A stretch of DNA of 64,000 bases from the IMG/VR virus record IMGVR_UViG_3300050120_000279; one strand, 5' to 3'. Shown here in pieces: positions 5,724 to 34,337 of this stretch. The notes under the pieces were generated by a model. It saw nothing but the letters and a program-made list of their open reading frames with translations, did no database searches and was not told where the DNA came from. Positions within the stretch are counted from its first letter, which is position 1. Each line of letters opens with the position of its first letter. Both the position numbers and the translations under genes were made by a program. Origin of the DNA: a virus (Duplodnaviria; Heunggongvirae; Uroviricota; Caudoviricetes).

Positions 5724-5814
5724 TAGAGCCTACCGGCTGCACGTTTGTCGGGATGGACAACATCTTCGGATGTCCCGAATTCATTCTGCCGACACAGTGT
5801 CCGGGTGTGAGTGA

Positions 5815-6033
5815 TTGCATTCGGTAAGTTCTATTGTGGGCCCGTCATGGTTTCGATTGGGTATTGGGTGGATAGCTGACGTGTCGGATCGGAAGCCCAC
5901 GTTACGGGAAGCCAAGACTACAACTGCCAAAAGCAATGTTGTTGCCGGTATCAAAGCCAAGGTGCTGTCTTTCGGCGCGCGCGTAAGCGCTGCGACCGCG
6001 ATGCCCACCATGGGTTTTGCCGCTGCTGCCTAA
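5815..6033 (+). CDS. hypothetical small protein (hydrophobic segment, Ala-rich C-terminus)
   Basis: 72 aa ORF in a 450-bp gap; followed by hairpin GCCCCG-n7-CGGGGC at about 6080..6098. Confidence 0.25.
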   Translation: MHSVSSIVGPSWFRLGIGWIADVSDRKPTLREAKTTTAKSNVVAGIKAKVLSFGARVSAATAMPTMGFAAAA

Positions 6034-6116
6034 GAAACAGCAACAGAGTTAGAGCCACTCTGTCCCTCAGAGCTCTCAAGCCCCGTGTAAAGCGGGGCAC
6101 TTCTATTGGAGGCAGC

Positions 6117-6395
6117 ATGACAGATCAGCTGTATATAGTTCTGCATACTCATCGATTTGGCAGCAGCACCTATGTTGTCAAGAGCGATCGTATGCCAACG
6201 GAACTTCAAGTAATCCGTTGTTTGGAACTCGACTATGAAGGGACTCGGGATGAGTCTATTGCCATCAATCTCTTGGAATCAAATGAGCCAGCGATTCTGG
6301 ATTACATTCCTGGATTAGATGATGCTGACTTCCGTTCCGAGGTGGACTACAACGGGACGGCTCTTCGTGATCATGAGGACGACGTCGATGGCTAA
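6117..6395 (+). CDS. hypothetical protein
   Basis: 92 aa ORF, GGAGG RBS. Confidence 0.4.
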   Translation: MTDQLYIVLHTHRFGSSTYVVKSDRMPTELQVIRCLELDYEGTRDESIAINLLESNEPAILDYIPGLDDADFRSEVDYNGTALRDHEDDVDG

Positions 6396-6687
6396 ACTGA
6401 TCCGGTTCGATGGTACGGAAGAGGAAGTCTTTCCGGCCGACAAGAAGAGTGGGTTCAGTCTGGGCGAGATGTATGCATTGCTTGGATGCGAGATGATCGA
6501 AGTGGTCTATCTCGCCAATGAGAAAGAGATCCTAATCATCGATGAAGAAGGCAAGCTCCGTCAGGATTGGCTTGAACGACTCAACGAGAAGGCTACTCAG
6601 TTGTTCTTCGAAGGGCGAGTTCCGAACGGTGACATCATCACCGGTAATGCTCTCCTGATAGTGGATGATGGTACAGAGTTTCAGTAA
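6388..6687 (+). CDS. hypothetical protein
   Basis: ATG overlapping the stop of the upstream gene; 99 aa. Confidence 0.4.
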   Translation: MAKLIRFDGTEEEVFPADKKSGFSLGEMYALLGCEMIEVVYLANEKEILIIDEEGKLRQDWLERLNEKATQLFFEGRVPNGDIITGNALLIVDDGTEFQ

Positions 6688-6693
6688 CAACTA

Positions 6694-6723
6694 AGCCCCG
6701 GTCAATTGATCGGGGCTTTTGCT
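6694..6723 (+). terminator. rho-independent terminator (AGCCCCG-loop-CGGGGCTTTTGCTTTG)
   Basis: GC-rich 6-7 bp stem followed by a T-rich tract directly after the stop at 6687. Confidence 0.55.
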
Positions 6724-6746
6724 TTGCCCACTCCAGTATTCCCCTG

Positions 6747-7013
6747 ATGGGAGGATCTCTAATGCCAGATGAAACTGAAGCTATCCGCCGCGGCCTACTG
6801 GCTGCGATCAATGACGAGCCCCAGGATCGTACAGCCCTCGAGCAGTTCTACGGCAAAGTGTGGACGTTAGCCGAATTGGGCGAAGAGTTTGTCATCAAGC
6901 AGTTTGCAGCTCCCCTCATCGTAGTCAAGCGTTTATCAGACGGCGTGCTCGGAACGATGTACTTCCAGCACAGCCCACGTTTCTACTTCAACTTCAAGGA
7001 AGACACGAAGTAA
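6747..7013 (+). CDS. hypothetical protein
   Basis: 88 aa ORF after terminator; GGGAGG RBS. Confidence 0.4.
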   Translation: MGGSLMPDETEAIRRGLLAAINDEPQDRTALEQFYGKVWTLAELGEEFVIKQFAAPLIVVKRLSDGVLGTMYFQHSPRFYFNFKEDTK

Positions 7014-8281
7014 TGGCAATCATTTACTACGATGGCTGCGACGCATGCGCACAGCGAAAATGGCTGAACGATGATCGAACAGATCTGGAAGCAGCTAATC
7101 CTTCTGTGATCAAACATACCTGCATTCTAGGGCAGGAAAGAAAGGCTTCAACAAGTATGGAAACGCACCCAATTCTGTTTCACATGGGAGCCAATGGTCT
7201 CCAACAATGGCGTGTTTGGACAGTCGGCGCTACCATCTTCTCCGAACACGGTCTCGTCGACGGGGCCAAGGTCAGTCACGAGAAGGTTTGTGAGTCCAAG
7301 AACGTCGGTCGTTCCAATGAGACGACACCTGAAGCTCAAGCAGTAGCGGAAGCTGCCGCTCTGTGGGTTCACAAGCGTGAGCGCAAGTACACGGAAGACC
7401 CTGCCGGAACCAAGACGGACATCTTCTTGCCCATGCTGGCGCCGAATGACAAGTGGCCAGAGACGAAGAAGCACATCAAGTATCCTGCGTTTCTTCAGCC
7501 CAAGTTGGACGGTAATCGCTCCGTCGGCCGGCTTGATGGCGATGAGGCTGTGCTGACCTCCCGTGAGGGCAAGCCCCAGGACTTCCTACCGCATATCAAT
7601 GCGGAGCTAAAGGCCCTGGGTCTCAGCGAGGACTATTTCCTCGATGGCGAGCTCTACTGTCATGGACAGAGCCTGCAGACGATCAACAGCTGGATCAAGA
7701 AGGCTCGGCCGGAGTCGATGCAGATCAAGTACCACATCTATGATCTCCCCGTCGTCAATGGCAAGACGGACCTTTCCCTAGCCGATCGCCTGGCGAATCT
7801 GGACCAGCTCTTTCTTGACACCTTCGATGGCAAGTGCCAGTTCCTTGAACTCGTACCAACCGAGATCGTCAATAACGAAGAGGAAGTGATGACCTGGTTC
7901 AAGCACTACCGCGACCTTGGCTACGAGGGAGTGATGGTCAAGAACACGGCCGGAAAGTACAAACAGAAGAGTCGCTCGAAGGACGTCGCCAAGGTCAAGC
8001 CGTTCGAAGACGCCGAATTCAAGGTGGTTGGTTTCACGGGCATGGAAGTCTACAAGGACGAAGTGCTCTGGATCTGCGAGACCAAGGAAGGCAGGACCTT
8101 CAAGGTCACGCCGAATGGTTCACGGGAACAGCGCAAGGAATGGTTTGCCACGGCTGACCAGTACATCGGTCGGATCCTGACGGTGACGTTCATGGGTTAT
8201 ACCGAGGACGGTATCCCGAACATCGCCAAGGGCAAAGCTTTCCGCCTGGAGAGTGATCTTCCTAAAGAGAGCGCGGCGTGA
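7013..8281 (+). CDS. ATP-dependent DNA ligase
   Basis: Adenylation motif I KLDGNR, motif III FLDGELY, motif IV YEGVMVK, motif V AKVKPFED; TAATG overlap with upstream gene. Confidence 0.85.
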   Translation: MAIIYYDGCDACAQRKWLNDDRTDLEAANPSVIKHTCILGQERKASTSMETHPILFHMGANGLQQWRVWTVGATIFSEHGLVDGAKVSHEKVCESKNVGRSNETTPEAQAVAEAAALWVHKRERKYTEDPAGTKTDIFLPMLAPNDKWPETKKHIKYPAFLQPKLDGNRSVGRLDGDEAVLTSREGKPQDFLPHINAELKALGLSEDYFLDGELYCHGQSLQTINSWIKKARPESMQIKYHIYDLPVVNGKTDLSLADRLANLDQLFLDTFDGKCQFLELVPTEIVNNEEEVMTWFKHYRDLGYEGVMVKNTAGKYKQKSRSKDVAKVKPFEDAEFKVVGFTGMEVYKDEVLWICETKEGRTFKVTPNGSREQRKEWFATADQYIGRILTVTFMGYTEDGIPNIAKGKAFRLESDLPKESAA

Positions 8282-8487
8282 TCCAGCTTTGGCTGCGACG
8301 GATCGTTTCTCTACCCTTCCTGCTCATTACCCTGGCGGTATGGATCATCGGTGACTTGCTCCGGTTCTGCAGCTACTTGCTTATCGGAACTATCGAGTGG
8401 ATCGAAGACGGCGATTGGCCTGGATTCAGCTGGCGCAAAGCTACCCAGATGTCACGGATAGCTTTTCTCTGGTGGCCTAAATACTAA
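8278..8487 (+). CDS. small membrane protein (two predicted TM helices)
   Basis: 69 aa hydrophobic ORF; ATGA overlap with the ligase stop; contains the AGCTTTGGCTG motif at codons 3-6. Confidence 0.4.
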   Translation: MIQLWLRRIVSLPFLLITLAVWIIGDLLRFCSYLLIGTIEWIEDGDWPGFSWRKATQMSRIAFLWWPKY

Positions 8488-8495
8488 GGAGAACT

Positions 8496-8897
8496 ATGTC
8501 ACAAAGTGCTGGCGCTGCTGGCGTCTACGGCATCCTGCTGAATGATCTCGACTCCGCGGAAGTAGAGTTGATCGTCAAGAAGCTGGATGCCGCCCAGCTC
8601 GATTACACAATGGAAAACGAGTGGGATGAACTTGAGAATGGTCCTGAAGATGTCGAGGCAATCAAGCTGCTTCGAGCAGAACTGGATGCCTACTTCATCG
8701 GTAAGGGTGTTGTGATTCCGGAGAAGGCCAAGATTCATTGGACTGCCTTTGATGACGAGCGCCCTGCGTCTTGTGCCACCGATGGTGAGCAGTGGGTTCT
8801 TGGCTTTGGTCTTTTCACACTACCCAGTGAGTACCCGCAGCTGGATAAGACATTCACTGATTTATCTGCCTGGTACACCTGGGCTTGGATGGGATAG
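8496..8897 (+). CDS. hypothetical protein
   Basis: 133 aa ORF with GGAGAA RBS; ends with TAG. Confidence 0.4.
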   Translation: MSQSAGAAGVYGILLNDLDSAEVELIVKKLDAAQLDYTMENEWDELENGPEDVEAIKLLRAELDAYFIGKGVVIPEKAKIHWTAFDDERPASCATDGEQWVLGFGLFTLPSEYPQLDKTFTDLSAWYTWAWMG

Positions 8898-8903
8898 GGC
8901 ACC

Positions 8904-9551
8904 ATGGGAATCATCGAACGGATCCTCTTGAAGCTACTTCGTCATGAGGACATCACAGATAAGGCGGGGGTTCTTTACCTCCGCCGATTCTTCCTCATCA
9001 ACAGAGACAAGAAAGTCACCTGCCATGACGGTACAGTGCAGGAAAAGCGTTCCTGGCATGTCTACCTCCACAAGTTCTATCGCGGCGACACAGACAGGCA
9101 TCTCCATGACCATCCCTGGCCCTTCAAGAGCCTGATGCTGGCCGGAGGATACTGGGAGCACCGCGCGAACCCTGATCACGCCCGTTGGACTGCTCTGCAG
9201 GCTGAGGGTGGCATCGGTGACATGTGCCGGCTGATCGAGATCGATCTCATGGGTGGTACGGCTGGCCTTTATGACCCGCTGCTGTCCGAAGTCAACGAGA
9301 TCTACTGGCGTGCAGGTCAGCGCAAGAAGCCTGAACCTCCGCTGACGATCCGCAAGTGGTATCGACCTGGGTCATTCATCGGCCGCGGCGCCCGCTGGAC
9401 GCATCGCGTCGAGCTTCCTCAGTGCAAGTTTGCCTGGACCCTGGTCTTCACTGGAGTCAAGGAACGTGACTGGGGCTTCCACACGGAAAACGGCTGGTGC
9501 TTCTGGAAGAACTACTCCGAAGGCGTCTGCGCTGTAGGTACTGAGCAATAG
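8904..9551 (+). CDS. hypothetical protein (contains HLHDHPW His-rich motif)
   Basis: 215 aa ORF. Confidence 0.4.
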   Translation: MGIIERILLKLLRHEDITDKAGVLYLRRFFLINRDKKVTCHDGTVQEKRSWHVYLHKFYRGDTDRHLHDHPWPFKSLMLAGGYWEHRANPDHARWTALQAEGGIGDMCRLIEIDLMGGTAGLYDPLLSEVNEIYWRAGQRKKPEPPLTIRKWYRPGSFIGRGARWTHRVELPQCKFAWTLVFTGVKERDWGFHTENGWCFWKNYSEGVCAVGTEQ

Positions 9552-9563
9552 AAAGGCACGACG

Positions 9564-10808
9564 ATGTTCAATGATCCGGAATCAGACGCCCACATGGCGA
9601 TCATTACCCTGGAGAACGCAGGCTTCAAAGCTCATGCCATTGGAGGCTGTGTCCGGGATTTGATCCTGGGGCGGAAACCCAAGGATTATGACCTCGTCAC
9701 GAATGCTACGCCGGAAGAGATCATCAAACTGTTCCCTAAGACGGTCAATGTCGGCGCTGCTTTCGGTGTCATTGTAGCCGTTCTGGAGCATTCTCAGGTT
9801 GAGATCGCCACCTACCGTGCAGACGGAGTCTACTCGGATGGCCGTCGTCCGGACACCGTGATCTATGCCAAGACCCTCGAAGAAGATGTCAGACGCAGGG
9901 ACTTCACCATGAATGGCATTGCGGCCAGCGCCCTTGGCAATGGCGTCCACATGGACTCATGGACTAAGGACTATGTCCATGGGTACAAGGACATCGAAGC
10001 GAAGATCATTCGAACGATTGGCGATCCGGTTGAACGGTTCACCGAGGATCCTCTCCGCATGCTGCGTGCCATCAGGTTCTCGGCCCAGCTGGGGTTCACC
10101 ATCGAGAAGAAGACTTTTGCCGCTATCCAGAAGTGTGCCAAGCTCATCCAGAAGGTTAGTGCTGAACGGGTTCGGACAGAACTGATCAGCCTTCTCACCT
10201 CAGATGAACCAGGTATAGGTATCGCCAATCTTCTGCGGTCGGGGTTGCTGAACTATCGTATGCAGTGGCTCCTGGACCTCAAGTTCCCGCGTCTAATCAC
10301 ACTGCTGGAGCTTGTCAAGCACTCCGAACAGGATAGATATCCCTCAGGTTTCATGCTCGGAGTGTTTCTGGAGTCATTGAAGCCGGCAATGCTCGGTGTG
10401 GCCATCAAGGATCTGAAACTGTCCTATGGCGAAGAGGCTTGCATCAAGAAGATGTGGGACTGGCCCATGTTGCAGGATCTTCGATACGCTGCGGCACCGT
10501 GGCGTCCTCGTGTGAAACGTGCCATGCGCGAGCCGTACTTTGCTCAGGCGATGCGACTCTTTGAGTTGGATCAACTGAGTGGTATCGGACTCAATCCAGA
10601 ACCATTCCAAGAGGTCAATGACCTGGTGACGATTTGCAAACAGGAAGGTATTTATCCTGCAGCTTTCGTGGACGGTGATGACCTGATGGAGTATGGATAC
10701 GAGGGCAAAGCCATCGGCGACGCACTCTACCTGCTCGAATCCGCCCAGCTGGATGGCGCCATCGACAGTAAAGACCAAGCACTACGGTACATCGGAGCAA
10801 TCAAATGA
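9564..10808 (+). CDS. cca: tRNA nucleotidyltransferase (CCA-adding enzyme / poly(A) polymerase head-domain family)
   Basis: GGCVRDLILGRKPKDYDLVTNATPEE matches the class II nucleotidyltransferase head motif; RDF..NG region conserved. Confidence 0.8.
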   Translation: MFNDPESDAHMAIITLENAGFKAHAIGGCVRDLILGRKPKDYDLVTNATPEEIIKLFPKTVNVGAAFGVIVAVLEHSQVEIATYRADGVYSDGRRPDTVIYAKTLEEDVRRRDFTMNGIAASALGNGVHMDSWTKDYVHGYKDIEAKIIRTIGDPVERFTEDPLRMLRAIRFSAQLGFTIEKKTFAAIQKCAKLIQKVSAERVRTELISLLTSDEPGIGIANLLRSGLLNYRMQWLLDLKFPRLITLLELVKHSEQDRYPSGFMLGVFLESLKPAMLGVAIKDLKLSYGEEACIKKMWDWPMLQDLRYAAAPWRPRVKRAMREPYFAQAMRLFELDQLSGIGLNPEPFQEVNDLVTICKQEGIYPAAFVDGDDLMEYGYEGKAIGDALYLLESAQLDGAIDSKDQALRYIGAIK

Positions 10809-11308
10809 GCGCACCACGAACCATTGAGTACTTCGAAGGCAGGTTCTTCTTCCTGTCGAACTTCTTCCCCATCCTGCTTGAATACGATGGCGCGGTCTAC
10901 CCGACCAATGAGCATGCGTTTCAGGCAGCGAAGACAATCGATCCGTTGGAGCGTATTGTGTTCCAGGATCCAAAGTCCTCGCCTTCGGATGTGAAGAAGC
11001 TCGGCCGAGCCATCACCCTCCGGCATGATTGGGAACAGGTCAAGAACTCCATCATGAAGGAGCAGCTGTTGGAGAAGTTCTCCGACAGGCACCCCATCTA
11101 TCTGAAGGGATTGCTCAACACCGAGGACCGCACTCTTGTTGAGGGTAACCTCTGGCATGACAACATTTGGGGCAACTGCCATTGCATGGACAATCTCACT
11201 GTCCGCGTTCCATTCGGATCAAAGGCATTCTGTGTTAGTCCTGGACAGAACCGACTGGGTCTGGCTCTGATGGAAGTCAGAGCAGAACGTCTCGCATGCC
11301 AGTCCTAG
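10805..11308 (+). CDS. NADAR (YbiA-like) domain protein
   Basis: EYFEGRFFFLSNFFP...YPTNEHAFQAAK matches the NADAR/DUF1768 signature; ATGA overlap with cca. Confidence 0.75.
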   Translation: MSAPRTIEYFEGRFFFLSNFFPILLEYDGAVYPTNEHAFQAAKTIDPLERIVFQDPKSSPSDVKKLGRAITLRHDWEQVKNSIMKEQLLEKFSDRHPIYLKGLLNTEDRTLVEGNLWHDNIWGNCHCMDNLTVRVPFGSKAFCVSPGQNRLGLALMEVRAERLACQS

Positions 11309-11796
11309 CAGTCATCGGGTCGCGATCATTCAACTACCAGGACCGAGTCTGGGAATATCTGGACAAGGTCCTGGAGAAGACCGAGAACCTAAGTCTGGTC
11401 TCGGGCGCCTGCCCTCAAGGCGCTGATGCCCTCGCAGAATCCTGGGCAAAGAGGAGGGGTGTTCCTATCCTGTTGTATCCGGCCGACTGGTCGAAGGGTA
11501 AGGGCGCCGGCTTTGCACGTAACCAGAAGATCGTCAAGGCAGCTGATGTCGTGGTGTGTTTCTGGGATGGCACGAGCAAGGGAACTGTGGATTCAATCGA
11601 ACGTGCATGGAGATTGGGGATTAAGGTCATGGTTTCGACCCCTCAAAACCCAAAGATGGTGCTCGTCAAAGACTTCATGGAACTTGCGCAGCGTGCTTGT
11701 TTGCACCCCGGAATGAGGGACTGGTCTACAGGAACTTCGACCTTCTGTCCGGACTGTAATCACGTGTTCAACGTACAAGACAACCCAACTCAGTAG
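11296..11796 (+). CDS. DUF2493 (YspA-like SLOG family) Rossmann-fold protein
   Basis: VIGSRSF...SGACPQGADALAESWAKRRGV...YPADWSKGKGAGFARNQKIV matches the DUF2493 consensus. Confidence 0.65.
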   Translation: MPVLAVIGSRSFNYQDRVWEYLDKVLEKTENLSLVSGACPQGADALAESWAKRRGVPILLYPADWSKGKGAGFARNQKIVKAADVVVCFWDGTSKGTVDSIERAWRLGIKVMVSTPQNPKMVLVKDFMELAQRACLHPGMRDWSTGTSTFCPDCNHVFNVQDNPTQ

Positions 11797-21430: not shown

Positions 21431-21747
21431 TGCCCCTACCCATGAGGGAACAGGAACTTGTTGACACTGGCGCCCCGAAGGTCTTCGCCTTCTGGAAGTA
21501 TGATCTGTTCCCCTTCATGCTCGGAGGTGAAGGCTACCTCGTTGAATGGGGCAAGGTTTACGTTCCGTCGTACCAGAACACGTTCAAACCGATCATCACT
21601 CTCAATAAGGCAGATGGTCAAAAGCTTCACGACGAACTGAAGATCCTTGAGCATGAACATTATGCAGCGAAGCAGCAACTCGCAGAAAGATTCCGCGGAC
21701 AACGCGATGGCATCTTGAAGCGTCACGGACAGGAGTATCCAAAGTGA
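21430..21747 (+). CDS. hypothetical protein
   Basis: 105 aa ORF. Confidence 0.35.
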   Translation: MPLPMREQELVDTGAPKVFAFWKYDLFPFMLGGEGYLVEWGKVYVPSYQNTFKPIITLNKADGQKLHDELKILEHEHYAAKQQLAERFRGQRDGILKRHGQEYPK

Positions 21748-22010
21748 AGAAGTATGTCATCGAGTTTCTGTATTGCGATAACAACCAGTTGTATCAGGAA
21801 GATGTCGAACTGACTCTTGATCAGCGAGCACGCCTGCTGATCTTCCTCTGTGGACTTGAGACTAATGGTGTCATCGAGAGTACAGAAGAGGCCAGTGAGT
21901 TCATTTATGAATACACCGAACCCAACTTCATCAAGTTTGATCGACTAAAGGCTCTATGGAGCCAAGGATCGCTGATAGATTCTGCCGATATGTATGGAGT
22001 AATTCTATGA
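21744..22010 (+). CDS. hypothetical protein
   Basis: 88 aa ORF. Confidence 0.35.
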   Translation: MKKYVIEFLYCDNNQLYQEDVELTLDQRARLLIFLCGLETNGVIESTEEASEFIYEYTEPNFIKFDRLKALWSQGSLIDSADMYGVIL

Positions 22011-23065
22011 CGACCAGAAGAAACCTGAGTGTTGAACTGCGGCCTCAGCGCCTATCCGAGTTGGTTGGCCAGGAGGGTGTCGTTGCCAGTCTTCGACGCA
22101 ATTTCGGTGCCGGCAGCGTGCCCATTGGTATCCTGCTGACCGGCTCCTTTGGTCAGGGTAAAACGACGATCGCTCGAATTCTGGGTATGGCTTTCAACTG
22201 CACTCACCAGGTCCAGTTTGGTGAGACCTGTGTCGATTGTCTCGACAATGCAGACATGTTCAACATCTTTGAGCTGAACTGTGCGGACTTGACGACCATC
22301 GACCAGATGAAAGAGTTCCTGCCCAAACTCTTACCGTACCCGAACTTTGGTAAGTATCGGATCATCATCCTCGATGAAGCACAGCAGATGTCGGACAAGG
22401 CTCAGCAGATCTTGCTGACCCCGCTCGAGGAGCTGGACTCCCATAACATCTTTATCTTCTGCACATCGAACCCGGCAAAGATCAATCAGGCTGTGAAGGA
22501 CAGGTGTAAGCCGTTCGCTATTCCTGATCTGAAACCGGCCGGCGTGACTGCTCTGGTCAACAGGACCGTGGAGCTGGCTGTCTCCCGCTATGGAATGCCT
22601 TCCATCCCGATGGATCCTCTCATCGAGATGCTGCATACCGCTCAGGTGTTCAGCTCGCGCAATGTAGTCATGGCTGTCGAGATGTTCCTTGAAGGGTCGA
22701 CGGCGGCCCAGGCGATCGTCATCAAGGACGCGGGCGAGGTAGACTACTTCTCCCTCAATGCCGCTGTAGGGCAGGGTAAGTGGGAACCAGCTCGTAAGAT
22801 TCTCCAGATGGCCAAGCCGGCGGATGGTGCCCAGGTGAAGATGCGTCTCTCAGCATTCTTCCGGTACAAGTTGCTGGAAACCCCTGCTGGGAGCCGGGCC
22901 GATCTTCTGTCACTCTTTATAAGGGAGTTGGGAGATGCGGCCGCTGTCGAGTCTGGTCTTGAATTATCCCTTGTCGTCAGTGCGGTCTACCGGATCTGCC
23001 AGACGATCGAGAACGTGAAGAGCAAGACTTCCACTAACAATCCAGTGTTGATCAAGGCGGCGTAA
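22007..23065 (+). CDS. clamp loader AAA+ ATPase subunit (DnaX/RFC-like)
   Basis: Walker A GILLTGSFGQGKTT, Walker B IIILDEAQQMS, sensor region; located just downstream of the clamp gene. Confidence 0.65.
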   Translation: MTTRRNLSVELRPQRLSELVGQEGVVASLRRNFGAGSVPIGILLTGSFGQGKTTIARILGMAFNCTHQVQFGETCVDCLDNADMFNIFELNCADLTTIDQMKEFLPKLLPYPNFGKYRIIILDEAQQMSDKAQQILLTPLEELDSHNIFIFCTSNPAKINQAVKDRCKPFAIPDLKPAGVTALVNRTVELAVSRYGMPSIPMDPLIEMLHTAQVFSSRNVVMAVEMFLEGSTAAQAIVIKDAGEVDYFSLNAAVGQGKWEPARKILQMAKPADGAQVKMRLSAFFRYKLLETPAGSRADLLSLFIRELGDAAAVESGLELSLVVSAVYRICQTIENVKSKTSTNNPVLIKAA

Positions 23066-23991
23066 TGAAAGTACTTACAGACGAGCAGCTGACTCTCATG
23101 CAACAGCACGCAGACCAGCCGATTCCGCCGTTTGCGCCCCATCCTGATCGGCACTACCGGGCGGTGGACACCTACCTGGAGAGCTGGCCGAATGATCTTC
23201 GGTCACTCTCGGTAGCTCAGATCGATATCCCACTGACCCTGGAGGAGTGCACGATCCTGGGTTCGCAGATCGCGGACTTCGGACAGTCGTTTGCACCCGA
23301 ACCCCTACCAGCACATGATCTGATTGCGAAGGTGCAAACAGCTTCCGAGAAGATGCCTGGTCCGTTCTTCGTCCGCCTGGGTTCACGAAGCCCCAAGGAT
23401 GCCCTTTACTGGTTCAAGGACGAGATGAAGGTCGACAATGGAGAGGAAGCTCTCCAACTGCTGACCGCTAGCTCCGAACGTGTCTGGGAAGATCTCCGGA
23501 TCGGCCTGCACTTCGGGTATGCCTCGCACATCTTCCTTCGCCAGTGGACGGAGATGCCTGAATGGTCCGAGTTCCGGTGCTTCATGAAGGGCCGGAAGCT
23601 CATTGCTGTCTCGCAGTACTACTATCGCCAGGCGCACCGTGAACTGATCGAGGACTACGACGGCATCAAGTGGGCCATCGAACAGTTCTTCACCCGTCAG
23701 TTCAAGCATCTTTCACATCTGGATGACGTGGTCTTTGATGTCTTCGTCAAGCAGAAGACCAATGCCGGCACGTTCAATAGCGGTGTCTGTGGCGTGCCTC
23801 CTTGGCGGGCCTGGGAGATCAAGCTCCTCGAGATCAACCCATACTGGAACCTGTGCGATCCTTGCCTCTTCAACTGGAGTGAGCTGGATGCACTAGCCGA
23901 AGGCGGAACTGAATACCAGTTCCGTTTCATCGAGCAGACTGAGCAGTTGATAGGCCACAAGTATTCGGTCGTCAAAGCTGACCAGCTCTAA
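23065..23991 (+). CDS. Cdc123/D123-like ATP-grasp family protein (candidate)
   Basis: FFVRLGSRSPKDA and SEFRCFMKGRKLIAVSQYYY match the two hallmark motifs of the Cdc123 ATP-grasp clade. Confidence 0.5.
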   Translation: MKVLTDEQLTLMQQHADQPIPPFAPHPDRHYRAVDTYLESWPNDLRSLSVAQIDIPLTLEECTILGSQIADFGQSFAPEPLPAHDLIAKVQTASEKMPGPFFVRLGSRSPKDALYWFKDEMKVDNGEEALQLLTASSERVWEDLRIGLHFGYASHIFLRQWTEMPEWSEFRCFMKGRKLIAVSQYYYRQAHRELIEDYDGIKWAIEQFFTRQFKHLSHLDDVVFDVFVKQKTNAGTFNSGVCGVPPWRAWEIKLLEINPYWNLCDPCLFNWSELDALAEGGTEYQFRFIEQTEQLIGHKYSVVKADQL

Positions 23992-24054: not shown

Positions 24055-26505
24055 GTGCAGAAGAAGTCAAGTAGCAAAGCTGTCGACGAGCCAGTGTCGT
24101 CACAGATGCAGATCAAGAAGCGCAATGGTTCTTTGGAGCCTGTCGACCTGAACAAGATTGTCCGTGCAATCGGACGTTGCTGTAATGGTTTACCCAATGT
24201 CGATCCGATTCGTGTGGCCTCAAAGACCATCAGCGGTATCTTCAATGGCGCAACCACCCAGCAGCTGGATGAACTGTCCATTCAGACGGCCGCGGCGCTT
24301 ATCTCAGAGGAGCCAGAGTACTCAAAGCTGGCAGCGAACCTCATGGCGGAGTACATCCGTAAGGAAGTAGCCAACCAGGAGATCCATTCGTTCTCCCATG
24401 CCATGACCGTGGGCCATGAGCAGGGGCTGATCAATGATCGTCTTCTGGAGTTCGTCAAGATCAATGCACGCAAGCTGAACAACGCGATCAAGGAAGAGCA
24501 CAGCGAGCTGTTCGAGTACTTCGGTATCCGGACTGTTTACGACCGCTATCTTCTTCGTCATCCTGTGAGCCGTAAGGTGATCGAGACACCTCAGTACTTT
24601 ATGATGCGTGTCGCTGCTGCCTTGGCTATGACCGTGGCCGATGCTCTTGAGACCTACCGTCTCATCAGCAACATGAACTACATCCCGTCGACCCCGACGT
24701 TGTTCAATGCGGGCACGACTCACGAGCAGATGTCCAGCTGCTACCTAATGGCTCCTCCCGAGGACTCCATCGAGGGCATCTACGAGATCTATGGTGAGAT
24801 CGCATTCAACTCCAAGTTCGCTGGTGGTATCGGCAGTCCCTGGGGTACGATTCGGTCGGCTGACTCGCTCATCAAAGGCACCAACGGCAAGTCCAATGGC
24901 ATTCTCCCCTGGCTCAAGACACTGGACTCGTCCGTGGCTGCAGTCAATCAGGGCGGACGCCGTAAGGGAGCCGCCGCGGTCTACCTACCAACTTGGCATG
25001 CTGACATCGAGGATTTCCTTGAGCTGCGCAACAATACCCTCGACGCGAACAAAGCGACACGCAATCTGAACCTGGCCCACTGGGTCCCGGATCTGTTCAT
25101 GGACGCGGTTGATCAGGACCGCGACTGGTATTTGTTCGATCCCAAGGATGTACCTGACTTCAACGAGAGCTTCGGTATCGATTTCGACAACGCCTATTCA
25201 GACGCTGTCACTGCCGGCAAGTTCAAGAAGAAGGTCAAGGCTCGTGACCTGTATGCCAAGATGATGCTTACCCTCGCAGAAACCGGCAACGGTTGGATGT
25301 GCTGGTCTGATCGGTCAAACGTCAAGTCGAACCAGACGGGTATGGGAGATGTCATTCATTCCTCGAACCTCTGCACAGAGATCCTCGAGGTGACCAAGCG
25401 CAAGGATTCAGACACCGAGACGGCTGTCTGCAACCTGGCTTCCGTGGTTCTTCCGTCGTACTGGGACCGTATCAAGGGCTCGTTCGATTACAAGACCATG
25501 GTGAAGGATATCAAACAGATCGTCCGTCAGCTGGATCGCGTGATCGACCTGAACTTCTACCCGATCGTATCGGCTGAGGTCTCGAACAAGAAGTGGCGTC
25601 CCATTGGTTTGGGTGTCATGGGCCTACAGGATGTGTTCTTCCTCGCCGGCCTGCCGTTCGATAGTCCTGAGGCCGTATCGCTCTCGACGAAGATCCAGGA
25701 AGAGATCTACTACGCGGCAATGTCTGCGTCATGTGATCTCGCGGAGAAAGAGGGTTCGTTTCCCAACTTCTCCAAGACCCGAACAGCTCTGGGCAAGTTG
25801 CAGTTCGATCTCTGGGACGTAGTTCCGGCAGACAAAGCACGCTGGGATGCTCTCAAGGATCGTATTGCCTCAACAGGCCTGCGAAACTCGTTGGTCATCG
25901 CCATCGCGCCGACGGCTACCATCGGATCTATCATCGGAGTCTACGAGTGCATCGAGCCGCAGGTTTCGAACCTGTTCAAGCGCGAGACACTGTCGGGCGA
26001 GTTCATCCAACTCAACCGGTACCTGGTAGCCGACCTCAAGAAGATCAATCTCTGGAACGAGGACATCCGTTCCAAGATCAAAATCGCTGATGGGTCGATT
26101 GCAGGCATCGAGGAGATCCCGGTGAACCTCCGACTGCTTTACCGCACGGTCTGGGAGCTGTCACAGAAAGACCTGATCGACATGGCGGCCGCCCGCGGCC
26201 CTTATATCGACCAGAGTCAGTCTCTGAATCTGTTCATCGAGAATCCTACGGTGGGCAAGCTGTCCTCGATGTACATGTATGCCTGGAAGAAGGGCTTGAA
26301 GACGACGTACTACCTGCGCTCGCGCGGTGCTTCGTCGATCGCCAAGACCACGGTAACCTCTGCTCCTACGACCAGTGCGTTTCCTCCAGCCATGCGTGAA
26401 GTGAAGACAGACCCGGCGCTGCAGCATCTTCTGGATGCAGCAGCGATGGGCGCGGCAATAGCGTGTTCTCTTGAGAACCCTGAATCGTGTGAGGCTTGTC
26501 AGTAA
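24055..26505 (+). CDS. nrdA: ribonucleotide reductase class Ia large subunit NrdA with N-terminal ATP-cone
   Basis: ATP-cone (QIKKRNGSLEPVDLNKIVRAI), catalytic NLCTEI, C-terminal redox Cys pair; GTG start with AAGGAA RBS (alternative ATG at 24106). Confidence 0.9.
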   Translation: MQKKSSSKAVDEPVSSQMQIKKRNGSLEPVDLNKIVRAIGRCCNGLPNVDPIRVASKTISGIFNGATTQQLDELSIQTAAALISEEPEYSKLAANLMAEYIRKEVANQEIHSFSHAMTVGHEQGLINDRLLEFVKINARKLNNAIKEEHSELFEYFGIRTVYDRYLLRHPVSRKVIETPQYFMMRVAAALAMTVADALETYRLISNMNYIPSTPTLFNAGTTHEQMSSCYLMAPPEDSIEGIYEIYGEIAFNSKFAGGIGSPWGTIRSADSLIKGTNGKSNGILPWLKTLDSSVAAVNQGGRRKGAAAVYLPTWHADIEDFLELRNNTLDANKATRNLNLAHWVPDLFMDAVDQDRDWYLFDPKDVPDFNESFGIDFDNAYSDAVTAGKFKKKVKARDLYAKMMLTLAETGNGWMCWSDRSNVKSNQTGMGDVIHSSNLCTEILEVTKRKDSDTETAVCNLASVVLPSYWDRIKGSFDYKTMVKDIKQIVRQLDRVIDLNFYPIVSAEVSNKKWRPIGLGVMGLQDVFFLAGLPFDSPEAVSLSTKIQEEIYYAAMSASCDLAEKEGSFPNFSKTRTALGKLQFDLWDVVPADKARWDALKDRIASTGLRNSLVIAIAPTATIGSIIGVYECIEPQVSNLFKRETLSGEFIQLNRYLVADLKKINLWNEDIRSKIKIADGSIAGIEEIPVNLRLLYRTVWELSQKDLIDMAAARGPYIDQSQSLNLFIENPTVGKLSSMYMYAWKKGLKTTYYLRSRGASSIAKTTVTSAPTTSAFPPAMREVKTDPALQHLLDAAAMGAAIACSLENPESCEACQ

Positions 26506-27349: not shown

Positions 27350-28375
27350 ATGCTACACATGAGCAATACCAAAGATGATCTTCTGTCCCCCGGCTTCGAT
27401 CTCAATCTTCGACCTATGAAATACCCAGACTTCTATGAGATGGTGGGCCTGGCAGAGAAGAACACCTGGACTGTTGAAGAGGTGGACTTTTCCACCGATC
27501 TCGTCGATCTCCGAACTAAGGTGACGACCGCTGAGAAGCATATGATCCAGCGCCTGGTCGCGTTCTTTGCCACCGGGGATTCCATCGTCTCGAACAACCT
27601 GGTGTTGAATCTTTACACCCACCTGAACTCTCCGGAAGCTCGCCTGTATCTTTCACGCCAGCTCTGGGAGGAAGCCCTGCACGTCAAGTTCTATCTGACA
27701 TTGCTGGATAACTACATCCCGGAACCTTCGGAACGCAACGCAGCCTTCGCCGCGGTGGATAACATCCCATCGATCCAGAAGAAGGCTGAGTTCGCCACCA
27801 AGTGGATCGATTCGATCAACGATCTGCACCGTATCGAGTCCACTGAGGACAAGAAGCGCTTCCTTCTGTGTCTCATCTGCTTTGCTGCATGTATCGAAGG
27901 CATGTTCTTCTTCGCTGCGTTCGCCTATGTGTACTTCCTCCGCTCGAAGGGTCTGCTTCATGGCCTTGCGACTGGGACCAACTGGGTTTTCAGGGACGAA
28001 TCGGCTCACATGGCGTTTGCCTTTGCTGCGATCGACGTGATCCGGGTTCAGTCTCCGGAACTGTTCGACGAGGATCTCAACAACCGGATTATCGAGCTCA
28101 TCGAAGATGCGATTGATACCGAGGTTCAGTTCGCCGAAGATCTTCTGTCGGGTGGAGTCGTCGGGCTCAGCGCCAAGGACATGCGTCAGTACTTGGAGTA
28201 TGTTGCTGACCAGCGCTTCGCGCGCTTGGGCATCAACTACAGCTACGGGTCGACCAATCCCTTTCCGTTCATGGAACTCCAAGACGTGCAGGAGCTGACG
28301 AACTTCTTCGAGCGACGTGTCTCTGCATACCAGGCCAATGTCACGGGAACCGTCGGTTTCGACGAGACCTTTTAG
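27350..28375 (+). CDS. nrdB: ribonucleotide reductase class Ia small subunit NrdB
   Basis: Di-iron/tyrosyl radical motifs (EEALHVKFY, FAACIEGMFFFAAFAYVYFL, NWVFRDESAHMAF); alternative start at 27359 with better RBS spacing. Confidence 0.9.
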   Translation: MLHMSNTKDDLLSPGFDLNLRPMKYPDFYEMVGLAEKNTWTVEEVDFSTDLVDLRTKVTTAEKHMIQRLVAFFATGDSIVSNNLVLNLYTHLNSPEARLYLSRQLWEEALHVKFYLTLLDNYIPEPSERNAAFAAVDNIPSIQKKAEFATKWIDSINDLHRIESTEDKKRFLLCLICFAACIEGMFFFAAFAYVYFLRSKGLLHGLATGTNWVFRDESAHMAFAFAAIDVIRVQSPELFDEDLNNRIIELIEDAIDTEVQFAEDLLSGGVVGLSAKDMRQYLEYVADQRFARLGINYSYGSTNPFPFMELQDVQELTNFFERRVSAYQANVTGTVGFDETF

Positions 28376-29848: not shown

Positions 29849-30598
29849 ATGCACAGCGGATTCTTCATCACGATCGAGGGCATCGACGGAATAGGCAAGT
29901 CTACCCAGATCAAACTCCTCGTGGATGCCATCAAGTCGGCAGGCCAGGCGGTATATCTAACCAAGGAACCTGGTGACAAGTTCACTGGCTCCATCATTGG
30001 CGCACCTATCCGGCATATGCTGTTCACCGATCCCGGTACGCAAGCTTTGGGTCCTGGCATTGGAGATCTACTTTTCCTCGCCGATCACATGCAGAATGTC
30101 TACGAAATCAAGAAGTATCTGGAGACCGGAGTTACGGTCATCTCAGATCGCTATGCTGATTCCCAGTTCGCCTATGCGGCCAGTCCTACTAAGAAGGCTC
30201 CTGCCTGGGCCAACAAGCTATTCGCAGAGCACTACGGGGTGATTCCCGACCTTACCCTCCTGATGGTCGCTCGTGGACCGAGTGCGCTATCTGATCCGTT
30301 TGCAGCAGAGGATATCGGATGGGCTTTACAGCGTGCTAATGCGCGCCGCGGCGTCGAAGCCGGTAAGCAAGACGGCAAAGCGTGGAATGATATCGAGGCC
30401 CAGCGAACCATTCAGAATGCGTATCTAACAGGACTGACTGGCAAAGCTCGCACTGCGATCATCAACATCTGGGATAGCAGCTCTGCCGAGACCGTCCATG
30501 AATTGATCATGGCTGCTATTCTCCTGGCACAGTCCCGTCACGGCGAAGGCAAGCAGCCCAACCTTCCACTTGTGGAATTGGTAGCCGAAGCGGCATAG
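29849..30598 (+). CDS. tmk: thymidylate kinase
   Basis: FITIEGIDGIGKSTQ P-loop, DRY motif (ISDRYADS), lid region. Confidence 0.8.
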   Translation: MHSGFFITIEGIDGIGKSTQIKLLVDAIKSAGQAVYLTKEPGDKFTGSIIGAPIRHMLFTDPGTQALGPGIGDLLFLADHMQNVYEIKKYLETGVTVISDRYADSQFAYAASPTKKAPAWANKLFAEHYGVIPDLTLLMVARGPSALSDPFAAEDIGWALQRANARRGVEAGKQDGKAWNDIEAQRTIQNAYLTGLTGKARTAIINIWDSSSAETVHELIMAAILLAQSRHGEGKQPNLPLVELVAEAA

Positions 30599-31941
30599 TG
30601 GCTCGTAGAGGACAGGTCTTCGAGCCGGTAGCGACCGCGCTCGAAGATCACGTACCGGTGAACTATAAAGTGATCGGTACCGCGGACTGGTTTGCCTCAC
30701 GGTTTGAACCAGATGCGGTTGATGAAGCCGACAAGATCGTTATCAGCAATGGTAGCGACCTGGCTCCCCACAAAGAATGGATCAGCCGGCAGAAGGCCAT
30801 CGGTGCGGATACCGAGACCACCGGCAGGATCGTCAAGGGCAACAAAGGCTACTCGATGAACCCCGTAAATGAAGGGACTCGACTAGTGCTGCTGCAACTC
30901 GGCACTGAAGAACGCACTTACCTGATTGATCCTGATCTCGTGGAGGAGTTCCGTGAACCTTTGGAGTCCACCAAGATCCTGAAGATCCTACAGAACGCTC
31001 TGTATGACTTCAAGTGGTTGATGACCAAGAAGAACGTCCACATGACTAGGATCTACGACACCATGCTGGCTGAGCAGGTACGCACTGCCGGCTTGATGGG
31101 TGTCAAGGTAGGCCTGGCGGATATGGCTCGCAAGTATGACCCCTATTACCTGATCTCGAAGGCCGTTCGCGGTCTCTTCGTAGAGCTGAATGAGGGGAAG
31201 ATGAGCCGGCCAATGGTGTACTACGCGGCTCGCGATATCCCGTTGATGTTCCCCATATTTCGGGCACAGCTCAAGGATCTGAAGGCCAATGGCCTGGAGA
31301 GCACCGCGCAGCTGGAGTTCGACTGCATCCCCTGTACGGCTGAGATGGAACTGGGCGGGGTCTTCTTGAAGACTGCACCTTTGGACCTGCTCATTCAGTA
31401 TTGGCAGGACAAGCAGGAGGCTATGGGCAATCAGATCCTCGCCATGTACAGCGAGGAGTTGAAGAACAGAGGTATCGGCAGTTCCTCTTTGATTCCCGAC
31501 CTCGATGAAGCATTTGACCTTGGCTCTGCCGCACAGAAACTCGTAGCCCTCCGAGCACTGGGCTTCGAGCTCGATGATACGAAGCGCGAAACCTTGATGG
31601 AACTCGATCACCCCATAGCGAAACTGCTTGGTGAGTATTCGAACGTCACCAAGATGACGTCTACGTACGGCGACAACATGCGACAGAAGATCAACGAGTT
31701 CACAGGCATGTGGCACCCACGATTCGCGCAGATGGGCTCCGGTGAGATGGAAGCTGCTTCTGGACGCGACAACACGACTACGACGGCGACCGGCCGTTAC
31801 GTTTCAGACGCACAGCAGTTCCCGCGCAAGACGGAGCGGTATGCCAATGAGAAGGACCAGGTCCTCCTGGGCCTTGTGGCAGATCACTTCAAAGCGCAGA
31901 TCGCTGATGTCGAGAAACGGGATAAGGACATAGCAGCATGA
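30598..31941 (+). CDS. family A DNA polymerase, N-terminal part (3'-5' exonuclease plus thumb region)
   Basis: Exo I GADTETTG, Exo III YAARDIPLMFPIF; ends before polymerase motif A. Confidence 0.8.
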   Translation: MARRGQVFEPVATALEDHVPVNYKVIGTADWFASRFEPDAVDEADKIVISNGSDLAPHKEWISRQKAIGADTETTGRIVKGNKGYSMNPVNEGTRLVLLQLGTEERTYLIDPDLVEEFREPLESTKILKILQNALYDFKWLMTKKNVHMTRIYDTMLAEQVRTAGLMGVKVGLADMARKYDPYYLISKAVRGLFVELNEGKMSRPMVYYAARDIPLMFPIFRAQLKDLKANGLESTAQLEFDCIPCTAEMELGGVFLKTAPLDLLIQYWQDKQEAMGNQILAMYSEELKNRGIGSSSLIPDLDEAFDLGSAAQKLVALRALGFELDDTKRETLMELDHPIAKLLGEYSNVTKMTSTYGDNMRQKINEFTGMWHPRFAQMGSGEMEAASGRDNTTTTATGRYVSDAQQFPRKTERYANEKDQVLLGLVADHFKAQIADVEKRDKDIAA

Positions 31942-32372
31942 GCAAGCAAGTTCAGCACGAAACAGTGAAGTTCAAGCTGTCTGATGTAGACGATGAGGAA
32001 CTCCGGACCAAACTCGAGCACAAGTTTCTCGTGTACGAGAACCTCAAGCGCGAGCAGGTCAAGGCAATCCGTGAGGCGCAGCGTGCTGCAGCCCGTGGAA
32101 CTATGGCATTGGCCGAGGTTCAGTTGTCGGAATCGGAGCTTCTGATCGAGGCTTCTGAAGCCTTCGATTTGATCTCTACCGAGCCGGCCTGGATCATCCG
32201 TCGTTCTCCCAATGGCGCGGTCATCTTCGAATGCATGCTCACTCAGACGGACATCCAGAACGTCCAGCGAGGGCAGATCAAGCAGATGAAGGAACAGATC
32301 AAGCCCACGGTGGATGACGACGACGATGAAGACGACTCTGCCTCGGATGAAGGTATGTTTCGCAAGGAATAA
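31938..32372 (+). CDS. hypothetical protein inserted between the two polymerase genes (acidic C-terminus)
   Basis: 144 aa ORF, ATGA overlap with upstream gene; ends DDDDDEDDSASDEGMFRKE. Confidence 0.4.
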   Translation: MSKQVQHETVKFKLSDVDDEELRTKLEHKFLVYENLKREQVKAIREAQRAAARGTMALAEVQLSESELLIEASEAFDLISTEPAWIIRRSPNGAVIFECMLTQTDIQNVQRGQIKQMKEQIKPTVDDDDDEDDSASDEGMFRKE

Positions 32373-32375
32373 CAC

Positions 32376-33329
32376 ATGGACGTTGGAGATCTCGTAAAGC
32401 TTGATGTACGAGACGGCGTCGATATCATGGGCTCCTTCCTCGGGATCTTCCAGGACCGTGAATGGTACTGGAGTCTCGAGGACAAGGTAACACTCTGGCG
32501 GGTACCGGACATTAGAGAGTGCATTGCGGCCCAGCCGGGCCACAAGGTTCTCTCTGCCGACTACAGTCAGATCGAAGTAAAGCTGATGGCGCACCTGTCC
32601 AGGGATCCAGTCCTGATAGCGGCCATCAATTCGAAGAAGGATATCCATTGCTTTACTGCGACGGAAGTCTTCGGGAAGAAGCTGAACTTCACCTACGAAG
32701 ACATCTTCAATGCGACCCAGCATAAGGACGCAAAGAAGCATCCTCGGCACAAGGAACTCAAGCGACTTCGCTCGAACATCAAGGTAGTGACGTTCGGTGT
32801 CCCCTATGGCGCCGGTGCTAAACGCGTCGCCGCAATGACAGGAATGACGGACGTCGAAGCTCAGGCGTTCATCGATGAATACTTCCTGAAGTTCCAAGTA
32901 TTGAAGGCCTGGCTCGAAGCCCAGGGTAATTTGGCTCTCAAAGAAGGATACACAGCGACACCGAACGGCCGCCGCCGTTTCTACACGCTGCCTCCCAAGG
33001 GAGACCCAGATTACGACGGTCAGTTGGCGCAGATCAGGCGCTGGGCAGGTAACCACCCGATCCAGGCAGCTAATGCCGACATGCTCAAGCTCGCGATTCG
33101 CAAGATTTATCTAGCGATCCGTGGGGGAATAGCGACCGGCCCTAAGCTGTACGACGCAAGGTTGTCTCTGGTCGTGCATGACGAAATCGTAATGATCTGT
33201 GCGGATAAGGATGTTGATGCCGTATCCAAGATCATCGACCGGGCAATGACGGAAGCGTACGACGAGATCATTCCAGATATCTGGAACACGATCGTAGTTG
33301 TGGCTGACGACATCTGGGAGAAGGTCTAG
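32376..33329 (+). CDS. family A DNA polymerase, C-terminal part (palm/fingers with motifs A, B, C)
   Basis: Motif A LSADYSQIEVKLMAHLS, motif B RLRSNIKVVTFGVPYGAGAKRV, motif C LVVHDEIVMIC. Confidence 0.8.
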   Translation: MDVGDLVKLDVRDGVDIMGSFLGIFQDREWYWSLEDKVTLWRVPDIRECIAAQPGHKVLSADYSQIEVKLMAHLSRDPVLIAAINSKKDIHCFTATEVFGKKLNFTYEDIFNATQHKDAKKHPRHKELKRLRSNIKVVTFGVPYGAGAKRVAAMTGMTDVEAQAFIDEYFLKFQVLKAWLEAQGNLALKEGYTATPNGRRRFYTLPPKGDPDYDGQLAQIRRWAGNHPIQAANADMLKLAIRKIYLAIRGGIATGPKLYDARLSLVVHDEIVMICADKDVDAVSKIIDRAMTEAYDEIIPDIWNTIVVVADDIWEKV

Positions 33330-33596: not shown

Positions 33597-34337
33597 ATGC
33601 CCAGCGGCGGTATGGATGCAAACCCATTTGGCGGCAACGCCAGACTAGACCGGATCGACTTTCTCGACTATGCCAGTGGCACGGACTCACCGTGGAAGCT
33701 GTTGTATTTGAAGGTCATTTCGGATGCCGTGAGTGATTACCTTTACTTCGGCCTGGGGAAGAATGGAACCGTAGCGGATGACTTCTTCTATGCGACTGAA
33801 TACTTCTTCAAGTGTCGGAGTTTTCTGCCTGAGACCTGGAAGCACGCGAACTCGATGCGACACGCCTATGTCGATGAAGTATCGGGCAAACGGGTATCGT
33901 CCCACCTGACCCTCACTGACGAGGAACTACGTCAGGCATGCTTCGATCGTCACTATGAGATCGCGGAGCTTCATAATCTCATGCCTTTCGATCAGTTTAT
34001 CGAGTGGCTCAAGGTTCGACGGTCAGAGATCCTCGAAGAGAACAAAGCGCAGGTCAACGCTTACATCGATCTTCTCCAGCGCACGGCGCTGCGTGAAGTT
34101 ATCGGTGGTCAGCAGATCCCGTTCAAGCTGGATTCAGCAGACCGAATGCAAGTGCTGACACGGCCGACAAGCCCGGAACAAGTAGCGGAGCTGGTGTTCT
34201 ACGCTCCTCGCTACCGTAGGCAGAATCGACCCCATCGTCAGGTGACCCGCCGAGAGATCAGGATTGCCAGTCCCCATGTTTACCGCCACGTAGCGGTGCC
34301 CAGTGGACAGACGCAATTCGCTCTGGAAGCGGCATAA
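33597..34337 (+). CDS. hypothetical protein
   Basis: 246 aa ORF. Confidence 0.4.
   Translation: MPSGGMDANPFGGNARLDRIDFLDYASGTDSPWKLLYLKVISDAVSDYLYFGLGKNGTVADDFFYATEYFFKCRSFLPETWKHANSMRHAYVDEVSGKRVSSHLTLTDEELRQACFDRHYEIAELHNLMPFDQFIEWLKVRRSEILEENKAQVNAYIDLLQRTALREVIGGQQIPFKLDSADRMQVLTRPTSPEQVAELVFYAPRYRRQNRPHRQVTRREIRIASPHVYRHVAVPSGQTQFALEAA

Follow-up and report, generated by a model that had tools for sequence, protein, structure and literature searches.

Introduction

Cdc123 is an essential protein of eukaryotes. It binds ATP and domain III of eIF2-gamma and is required for assembly of eIF2, and its ATP-grasp site is conserved from human to bacteria, yet no ligation product has been reported; by 2022 "no enzymatic activity" had been identified, a report of late 2025 described ATPase activity for rat CDC123, and ligase activity has not been reported for any member of the D123 family, with only ATP binding and hydrolysis shown to date for Cdc123. 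Burroughs, Zhang & Aravind (2015) described an R2K clade of ATP-grasp proteins with three families, lacking the ssxGbGl loop and the linker lysine, for which peptide-ligase activity on proteins in conflicts was predicted (PMC4431377). In that analysis the D123 family, R2K.1, was placed in eukaryotes, giant viruses, and bacteria, with only R2K.2 reported in tailed phages; bacterial D123 was already associated with type VI secretion systems (T6SS) and polymorphic toxins, where a "secondary toxin" role was considered, and phage R2K proteins were proposed to modify host proteins (PMC4431377). The present study analyzes a stretch of 64,000 nucleotides from a virus of the Caudoviricetes (IMG/VR record IMGVR_UViG_3300050120_000279, hereafter the window), in which a gene for a Cdc123/D123 (R2K.1) ATP-grasp protein, hereafter window D123, lies between genes for a clamp loader and a ribonucleotide reductase (RNR).

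Literature searches for experiments with bacterial or phage Cdc123-like proteins turned up no more than the 2015 analysis, one line in a 2021 survey of jumbo phages, where "the R2K family" was sporadic in one subgroup, and a 2018 preprint on Pectobacterium, and functional study of prokaryotic D123 has been limited to one negative toxicity test. In that test the Pectobacterium D123 (PCBA_RS05775), whose gene lies near a WHH nuclease gene without an adjacent immunity gene of its own, was non-toxic when expressed in E. coli, but the WHH nuclease was likewise non-toxic in the same assay, which therefore carries limited weight (bioRxiv 10.1101/391854). What is new here is that R2K.1 proper occurs as a stand-alone, recurrent gene in tailed phages, without toxin-immunity partners. 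Our preferred reading, to which we would give a probability of roughly 0.6, is that window D123 is an enzyme that uses ATP and whose target is a protein encoded elsewhere, probably by the host.

Results

Family assignment and active site

The D123 coding sequence is complete, occupying 23065-23991 with an ATG start and encoding 308 amino acids; it and all parts of it given below are on the plus strand. A preliminary description of this DNA, made from the letters alone, had quoted two motifs from this open reading frame (ORF) as diagnostic of the Cdc123 clade, and both, FFVRLGSRSPKDA and EFRCFMKGRKLIAVSQ, are present in the translation. The call itself was borne out by Pfam, where PF07065 (D123) matched far beyond chance, at 105.7 bits (gathering cutoff 24) with an expectation value (E) of 3.3e-30, over residues 85-295 and profile positions 74-278 of 300. 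There was no match to the R2K_2 or R2K_3 Pfam models at E <= 0.1, and the sister R2K models reached only sub-threshold scores (about 16-19 bits) with relatives of window D123. Searching PDB sequences with phmmer found human Cdc123 (8PHD, 2.3e-12) and S. pombe Cdc123 (4ZGN/O/P, about 1e-10), which improved to 7.4e-30 and 5e-19, respectively, with a profile from 61 relatives. An AlphaFold2 model built on the alignment of those 61 relatives was confident (mean predicted local distance difference test, pLDDT, 91.6; predicted template modelling score, pTM, 0.86), and comparison of this model with the PDB by Foldseek agreed with the same call: the top ten matches were Cdc123 chains (E 6.7e-16 to 1e-13, TM-score up to 0.79), in alignments covering 268-296 columns of Cdc123 and both of its domains, followed by generic ATP-grasp enzymes at E of about 1e-3. 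Given this ranking, protein-carboxylate amino-acid ligases are among the nearest structural neighbours outside the D123 family, and the 2015 analysis likewise puts the R2K clade near RimK-like enzymes (PMC4431377). The two-lobed grasp fold, a RAGNYA lobe and a protein-kinase/PIPK-like lobe, is present in window D123. Profile, sequence, and structure evidence together make a solid case for membership in the Cdc123/D123 (R2K.1) family; as a bacterial host has no eIF2, the protein is taken as a relative by fold and family rather than as a functional Cdc123.

Conservation was counted in the alignment of the 61 relatives, which are 35-63% identical to the window protein, and 22 columns were invariant, with all catalytic positions among them. 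The N-terminal pre-ATP-grasp domain (residues 1-84; 23065-23316), delimited from alignment invariants, the secondary structure of the model, and Foldseek, contains invariant T36 and W41 in the segment YLESWPNDL, with approximately the first 30 residues common only to the closest relatives. The first motif, FFVRLGSRSPKDA (residues 101-113; 23365-23403), was aligned residue by residue to 8phd, and within it the numbering coincides with that of the human protein. Here R104 corresponds to human K104, the strand-2 basic residue, S109 to A109, where the classical tsD123 mutation falls within the ATP pocket of Cdc123, and K111 to R111, the second basic residue, which defines the R2K clade and contacts ATP (roles of the human residues from PMC4431377 and PMC12860950). 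Position 104 is arginine in 59 of the 61 relatives and lysine in two, and R108, S109, K111, and D112 are each found in 61/61. The loop after strand 2 reads GSRSPKDALYWFKD, in which there is no ssxGbGl-like motif.

The second motif, EFRCFMKGRKLIAVSQ (residues 169-184; 23569-23616), corresponds in the alignments to EFRCFVK in the human and yeast Cdc123 proteins, and its E169, R171, and C172 are invariant in the relatives; an arginine of the R171 type in the kinase-like lobe's first strand is typical of ATP-grasp ligases that form amide bonds (PMC4431377). D225 (codon 23737-23739), the strand-4 acidic residue of the kinase-like lobe, matches human D233 and is invariant (61/61), while E256-I-N258 (23830-23838) is the ExN Mg/ATP motif, human D246-x-N248, with E256 and N258 both invariant. 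In a wider set including bacterial loci, position 256 was glutamate in 38 sequences and aspartate in four. The strands that carry D225 and ExN are separated by a variable loop (residues 231-249; 23755-23811), seen as a gap against 8phd and 4zgo, which is not in Cdc123 and is modelled with lower confidence (block pLDDT 65-74).

On this conservation of the ATP/Mg-binding and catalytic positions R104, K111, R171, D225, and E256-x-N258, window D123 is predicted to be catalytically competent, and purifying selection on the catalytic positions in 61 divergent relatives argues that it is an enzyme that uses ATP and not a remnant in decay. Arginine for the strand-2 lysine is the only departure of the prokaryotic and phage group from the published definition of the clade.

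Occurrence in phages

A tblastn search of 50,697 deposited phage genomes (INPHARED) with D123 returned nothing at E of 1e-5 or of 5. A word-indexed search gave 142 relatives, nearly all metagenomic, with PF07065 present in 120/120 among the matches listed, and an exhaustive search of 1.84 billion cluster representatives gave 1407 proteins with E <= 1e-3, of which 367 reached <= 1e-10 and 87 reached <= 1e-30. Longer relatives (356-408 amino acids) contained only D123, with no fused domain. The D123 family is recurrent in metagenomic phage contigs, many of them longer than 100 kb. The preliminary description had spoken of rare bacterial and phage members; the 2015 analysis has R2K.1 in bacteria but gives only R2K.2 for tailed phages (PMC4431377), and R2K.1 in tailed phages had been undocumented, with no match in INPHARED or PHROGs. 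In a viral structure library the good matches were Cdc123 proteins of giant viruses, with the exception of the entry at rank 2, and named tailed viruses gave only weak ATP-grasp matches.

In jumbo-phage contigs D123 stands among genes for RNA ligase, HD_4, NADAR, YAcAr, and R2K_2/3 proteins. In three of them (L006, L011, and L014, 168-388 kb) it adjoins genes for an RNA-ligase-like protein, an HD_4 (RelA/SpoT-type) hydrolase, and thioredoxin, and NADAR and YAcAr genes are close by, a neighbourhood of RNA repair and ADP-ribose conflict. Another, the 190-kb jumbo-phage-like contig L003, carries an R2K_2/R2K_3-type gene and D123 at 2770-3618 and 8001-8888, approximately 4.4 kb apart, and two families of the R2K clade thus coexist in one phage.

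Bacterial relatives and toxin-immunity cassettes

When bacteria were scanned with one genome for each species, in a search limited by pattern, 31 scattered D123 loci came to light, in myxobacteria (Archangium, Vitiosangium), Acidobacteriota (Pyrinomonadaceae, Holophagae, Acanthopleuribacter, Sulfidibacter), Methylococcaceae, Bacteroidales, Desulfobacterales, and a few Alphaproteobacteria. Of the 25 that could be analysed, at least 15 shared a conserved cassette (bacterial loci L023-L050; e.g. L025 153-6777) with the order VgrG, in some cases a DUF4123 adaptor, a protein of about 135 amino acids, a WHH/Colicin-DNase toxin, the immunity protein SUKH (SMI1_KNR4), and D123. D123 is the last gene of the cassette, with a 4-nt overlap between it and SUKH in 11 loci and no conserved gene behind it. 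The protein of about 135 amino acids had no match in Pfam or NCBIfam. Hidden Markov models of the SUKH, WHH-toxin, and 135-residue partners had no match, whether in the six translated frames of the window (E <= 10) or in the 17 phage loci (E <= 1). A neighbour-joining tree set the phage sequences apart from the T6SS-linked ones with weak bootstrap support (32-56%), and monophyly of phage D123 is not claimed. The gene pool that holds the D123 of bacterial T6SS toxin-immunity cassettes is most likely also the source of phage D123. That the bacterial gene lies on the immunity side, that it has no dedicated immunity gene, and that the toxicity test was negative suggest an auxiliary or protective rather than a toxic role, and the same three facts point to a target of sufficient generality to be useful both to a T6SS-armed bacterium and to a phage.

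The alternative explanation that survives best starts from these cassettes, and holds that D123 is an immunity-like or counter-defence enzyme, which in bacteria would serve the immunity side of WHH-nuclease/SUKH cassettes and which phages would have captured alone to neutralise host toxins of the nuclease or tRNase type, or to repair the damage they do, during infection. That bacterial D123 directly follows SUKH with nothing like an immunity gene behind it, that the Pectobacterium protein is unaccompanied in the same way and harmless to E. coli, and that phage copies stand alone, in one jumbo-phage group beside RNA-ligase and other repair or conflict genes, would all fit this. The argument is purely contextual, however, and the E. 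coli assay failed to detect toxicity of the WHH nuclease too; moreover there is no known chemistry that would let an ATP-grasp enzyme disarm a nuclease of the HNH type, and PADLOC gave no match, so we consider this explanation unlikely.

The locus and the replication genes

Upstream of D123 is a clamp-loader ATPase (21956-23065, plus strand; Pfam DNA_pol3_delta2/AAA, phrog_5846) and downstream is the large subunit of a class I RNR (24055-26505, plus strand; ATP-cone, Ribonuc_red_lgN, and barrel by Pfam and PHROGs), with the small subunit at 27350-28375; both neighbours had been correctly named in the preliminary description. The clamp-loader and D123 genes are co-oriented and their stop and start codons overlap, the TAA and the ATG sharing one base in a TAATG junction (23063-23067, plus strand) that can be read directly, and no promoter-like or terminator-like sites were found between the clamp-loader, D123, and RNR genes. 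The overlap suggests co-transcription and translational coupling of clamp loader and D123, and D123 would then be transcribed together with the replication genes. If the longest ORF is taken for the clamp loader, its start (21956) overlaps an ORF of 88 amino acids (21744-22010) by approximately 55 nt, while the same gene pair overlaps by only 4 nt in two metagenomic contigs, L001 and L019, and the true start is therefore probably downstream of 21956. The small ORFs flanking D123 had only marginal PHROG matches of unknown function (E about 3e-3 to 5e-3) and no match in PADLOC.

The order uracil-DNA glycosylase (UDG), small ORF, clamp loader, D123, class I RNR is found in the window, L001, and L019, with D123 proteins 60% (L001) and 51% (L019) identical to that of the window. 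Flanking proteins of the two contigs are 45-82% identical to those of the window, the RNR large subunit reaching 82% with L001, and because of this similarity the shared order of clamp loader, D123, and RNR is attributable to common descent. Searching metagenome contigs with an alignment of the clamp loader, which samples the lineage without conditioning on D123, yielded two more contigs, L053 and L054, while a scan of IMG/VR with the clamp loader found no relative of the lineage. The clamp loader is 52-56% identical to its orthologues in L001, L019, and L053. The last of these is equally related to the window (UDG 77%, small ORF 48%, clamp loader 56% identical), and its clamp loader is followed, where the window has D123 and the class I RNR, by two small ORFs and another, long RNR (2785-5931, ORF up to 1048 amino acids, 24% identical to the class I enzyme of the window) without D123, an arrangement that shows module replacement downstream of the clamp loader. 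Conversely, the D123 of P0004, 59% identical and in the same clade with 100% bootstrap, is surrounded by small ORFs near an integrase, and no clamp loader or RNR was found within 10 kb of D123 in 15 further phage-like loci, 12 of them from IMG/VR contigs of 17-388 kb (8 of these >100 kb).

These patterns bear on an alternative in which D123 helps the replication and deoxynucleotide-synthesis module, as an ATP-dependent assembly chaperone for the clamp loader or clamp or for the alpha2-beta2 complex of RNR. Such a helper would account for a gene order kept in three contigs though the D123 proteins are only 51-60% identical, for the stop-start overlap with the clamp-loader gene, and for the co-absence in L053 of D123 and the usual RNR, and it would resemble Cdc123, itself an ATP-dependent assembly factor. 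It would not account for the location of P0004 and the 15 other phage genes away from clamp loader and RNR, nor for the bacterial relatives in toxin-immunity cassettes, and common descent explains the order given the similarity of the flanking genes; we consider it unlikely. D123 is an accessory gene in a variable slot and not a component of the replication or deoxynucleotide machinery. The link to the replication module implied by the preliminary description, which had made D123 stand out, is not supported, with the order confined to related contigs and missing in L053, P0004, and the 15 other loci: the position of D123 beside replication genes is lineage synteny, not a functional clue.

The carrier phage genome

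Genes of the window are almost entirely on the plus strand and include an ATP-dependent DNA ligase, a CCA-adding/poly(A) polymerase-type enzyme, a RecD2-type helicase, a Rad52-like protein, a beta-clamp, UDG, the clamp loader, RNR alpha and beta, a SNF2-type helicase, an AAA ATPase, a UvsX-like recombinase, a DnaG-type primase, a sigma-like factor, and a split family A polymerase. The polymerase is in pieces on the plus strand: 30598-31941 (3'-5' exonuclease and N-terminal polymerase part), 31938-32372 (an ORF of 144 amino acids), and 32376-33329 (palm and fingers). Permuted two-piece transfer-messenger RNAs (tmRNAs) are a typical feature of cyanobacteria, Alphaproteobacteria, and part of the Betaproteobacteria. 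One is encoded at 5656-6033 on the plus strand (Rfam RF04321, 76.1 bits, gathering cutoff 47), with the tag peptide AATAMPTMGFAAAA predicted by ARAGORN, and it may hint at the host group of the phage, an alpha- or betaproteobacterium or a cyanobacterium.

The window also encodes other tRNAs besides an amber-suppressor tRNA with anticodon CTA (4051-4127, plus strand; Rfam tRNA, 64.9 bits), which ARAGORN labels "Pyl". Recoding of TAG was considered and rejected, as TAG ends 13 of 52 plus-strand ORFs and there was no convincing read-through pattern; same-frame ORFs split by TAG, at which partial read-through may occur, are 8496-8897|8904-9551|9564-10808, 44420-45640|45656-46222, and 32376-33329|33597-34337.

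Toward the end of the window are a RepA_C replication initiator (59275-60207, minus strand), a ParA partition ATPase (61225-62007, minus strand), and a TetR regulator (62456-63085, plus strand), and the presence of RepA_C and ParA at 59-62 kb suggests a plasmid-like prophage state, i.e. a phage-plasmid. One contig from an independent sample (L020, SRR35930614_532, 88,212 bp) is 100% identical over its positions 1-11545 to window 52456-64000 and continues beyond the window end with minus-strand genes including a tail-fibre or virion protein and a beta-helix protein; it is the same phage, assembled from another sequencing run. The element is a tailed phage of approximately 85-88 kb and possibly a phage-plasmid. 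A megablast search of deposited phage genomes with the 9-kb D123 neighbourhood returned no match, and no close relative of the element is among them.

Discussion

If our preferred reading is correct, window D123 would bind ATP-Mg in the grasp cleft and spend the ATP on a protein substrate not encoded beside it, a host or other broadly conserved protein being the most likely. This could occur in either of two ways: a carboxylate would be activated to the acyl-phosphate and an amino acid or peptide then ligated, as in LysX/ArgX, RimK, and Ddl, or the protein would use ATP to gate binding and release of a client, the one behaviour demonstrated to date for Cdc123. Within this reading a ligase appears somewhat more likely than a pure chaperone, and the role is most likely in phage-host conflict or the conditioning of host factors. 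The suggestion in the preliminary description that D123 may be a modification or host-takeover enzyme is reasonable, a role of this type has already been proposed for the R2K clade, and the finding is not by itself a new mechanism.

Several observations weigh against this interpretation. No substrate, product, or partner was found for window D123, and phage D123 loci have no neighbour gene common to all of them, only lineage-specific blocks, which gives no pointer to a target. The protein had no match in PADLOC, NCBIfam, or PHROGs, leaving a role in conflict uncorroborated by those collections, and the timing of D123 expression can be read only from gene order. Lastly, the strand-2 residue is arginine, whereas the definition of the clade calls lysine at this position "absolutely conserved".

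One more specific form of the enzymatic reading concerns the client. The GTPases eIF2-gamma and EF-Tu have a three-domain architecture in common. This homology of clients, together with the tRNAs, tmRNA, and CCA-adding enzyme of the phage and the RNA-repair neighbours of D123 in some jumbo-phage loci, leads to the idea that tailed phages have a widespread Cdc123 lineage of their own, separate from the T6SS toxin-immunity cassettes, which uses ATP to modify or remodel an EF-Tu-like translational GTPase, the bacterial counterpart of eIF2-gamma, during infection, and which we regard as very unlikely as it stands. If it were true, the D123 family would gain a biochemical reaction, and phage and bacterial D123 would show what the eukaryotic eIF2 assembly factor did ancestrally, before its recruitment.

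Two further alternatives differ from the preferred reading in what the protein would do to the host, or in whether it would do anything. In the first, D123 is a toxin for host shut-off, with an essential protein of the host inactivated through ATP-dependent modification, which would be in keeping with the intact active site and with the "secondary toxin" and host-modification proposals of Burroughs et al.; but bacterial D123 lacks a cognate immunity gene, the Pectobacterium homologue did not inhibit growth of E. coli, and a constitutively lethal product would fit poorly with the RepA_C and ParA maintenance genes, although regulation could solve this, and such a toxin is highly improbable. In the second, D123 is a non-enzymatic remnant or pseudo-enzyme keeping only its fold, which would suit both the lack of any known activity in the family beyond ATP binding and hydrolysis and the replacement of the strand-2 lysine by arginine, but is scarcely credible with an intact reading frame, a confident model, and catalytic and ATP-binding positions invariant across 61 sequences of such diversity.

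An ATP-using enzyme with a substrate elsewhere remains our preferred reading. The D123 family is extended here to tailed phages, adding a candidate protein-modifying or remodelling activity to the auxiliary repertoire of phages, and a compact phage D123 of 308 amino acids, with a conserved active site and no toxin or immunity partners, would offer a simple entry to the substrate of the family.

Comparison with described systems places window D123 at different distances from each. Farthest in sequence are the protein-carboxylate amino-acid ligases of the RimK/LysX/ArgX type, which are 9-12% identical to it. Giant-virus (Nucleocytoviricota) Cdc123-like proteins, including those of Clandestinovirus, Lausannevirus, Yasminevirus, and CroV, belong to the same family and gave the best matches in the viral structure library (E 1.8e-15 to 1e-9, identity 11-24%), but giant viruses infect eukaryotes, so that their host has eIF2, whereas the host of the window phage does not; the giant-virus versions are said to group with versions of the Legionella/amoeba type (PMC4431377). 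Eukaryotic Cdc123 (4ZGN/4ZGO/4ZGP/4ZGQ, 8PHD/8PHV) is only 21-26% identical, and its known client, domain III of eIF2-gamma, is absent from bacteria and phages. Window D123 lacks the low-complexity inserts and the long C-terminal tail of the eukaryotic protein, has its own 19-residue loop at residues 231-249, and carries arginine in strand 2 and lysine in the following loop, the reverse of human K104/R111. The closest relatives with a described context are the bacterial R2K.1 proteins of T6SS loci, 28-45% identical, of the same length class (about 250-300 amino acids) and with the same invariant residues; their genes follow a toxin and SUKH and are usually coupled translationally to SUKH, partners that window D123 does not have. 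In being stand-alone phage genes, R2K.2 (PF18299) and R2K.3 (PF14243/DUF4343) of the same clade are similar to window D123, and they were reported earlier in tailed and jumbo phages with the same predicted role, modification of host proteins.

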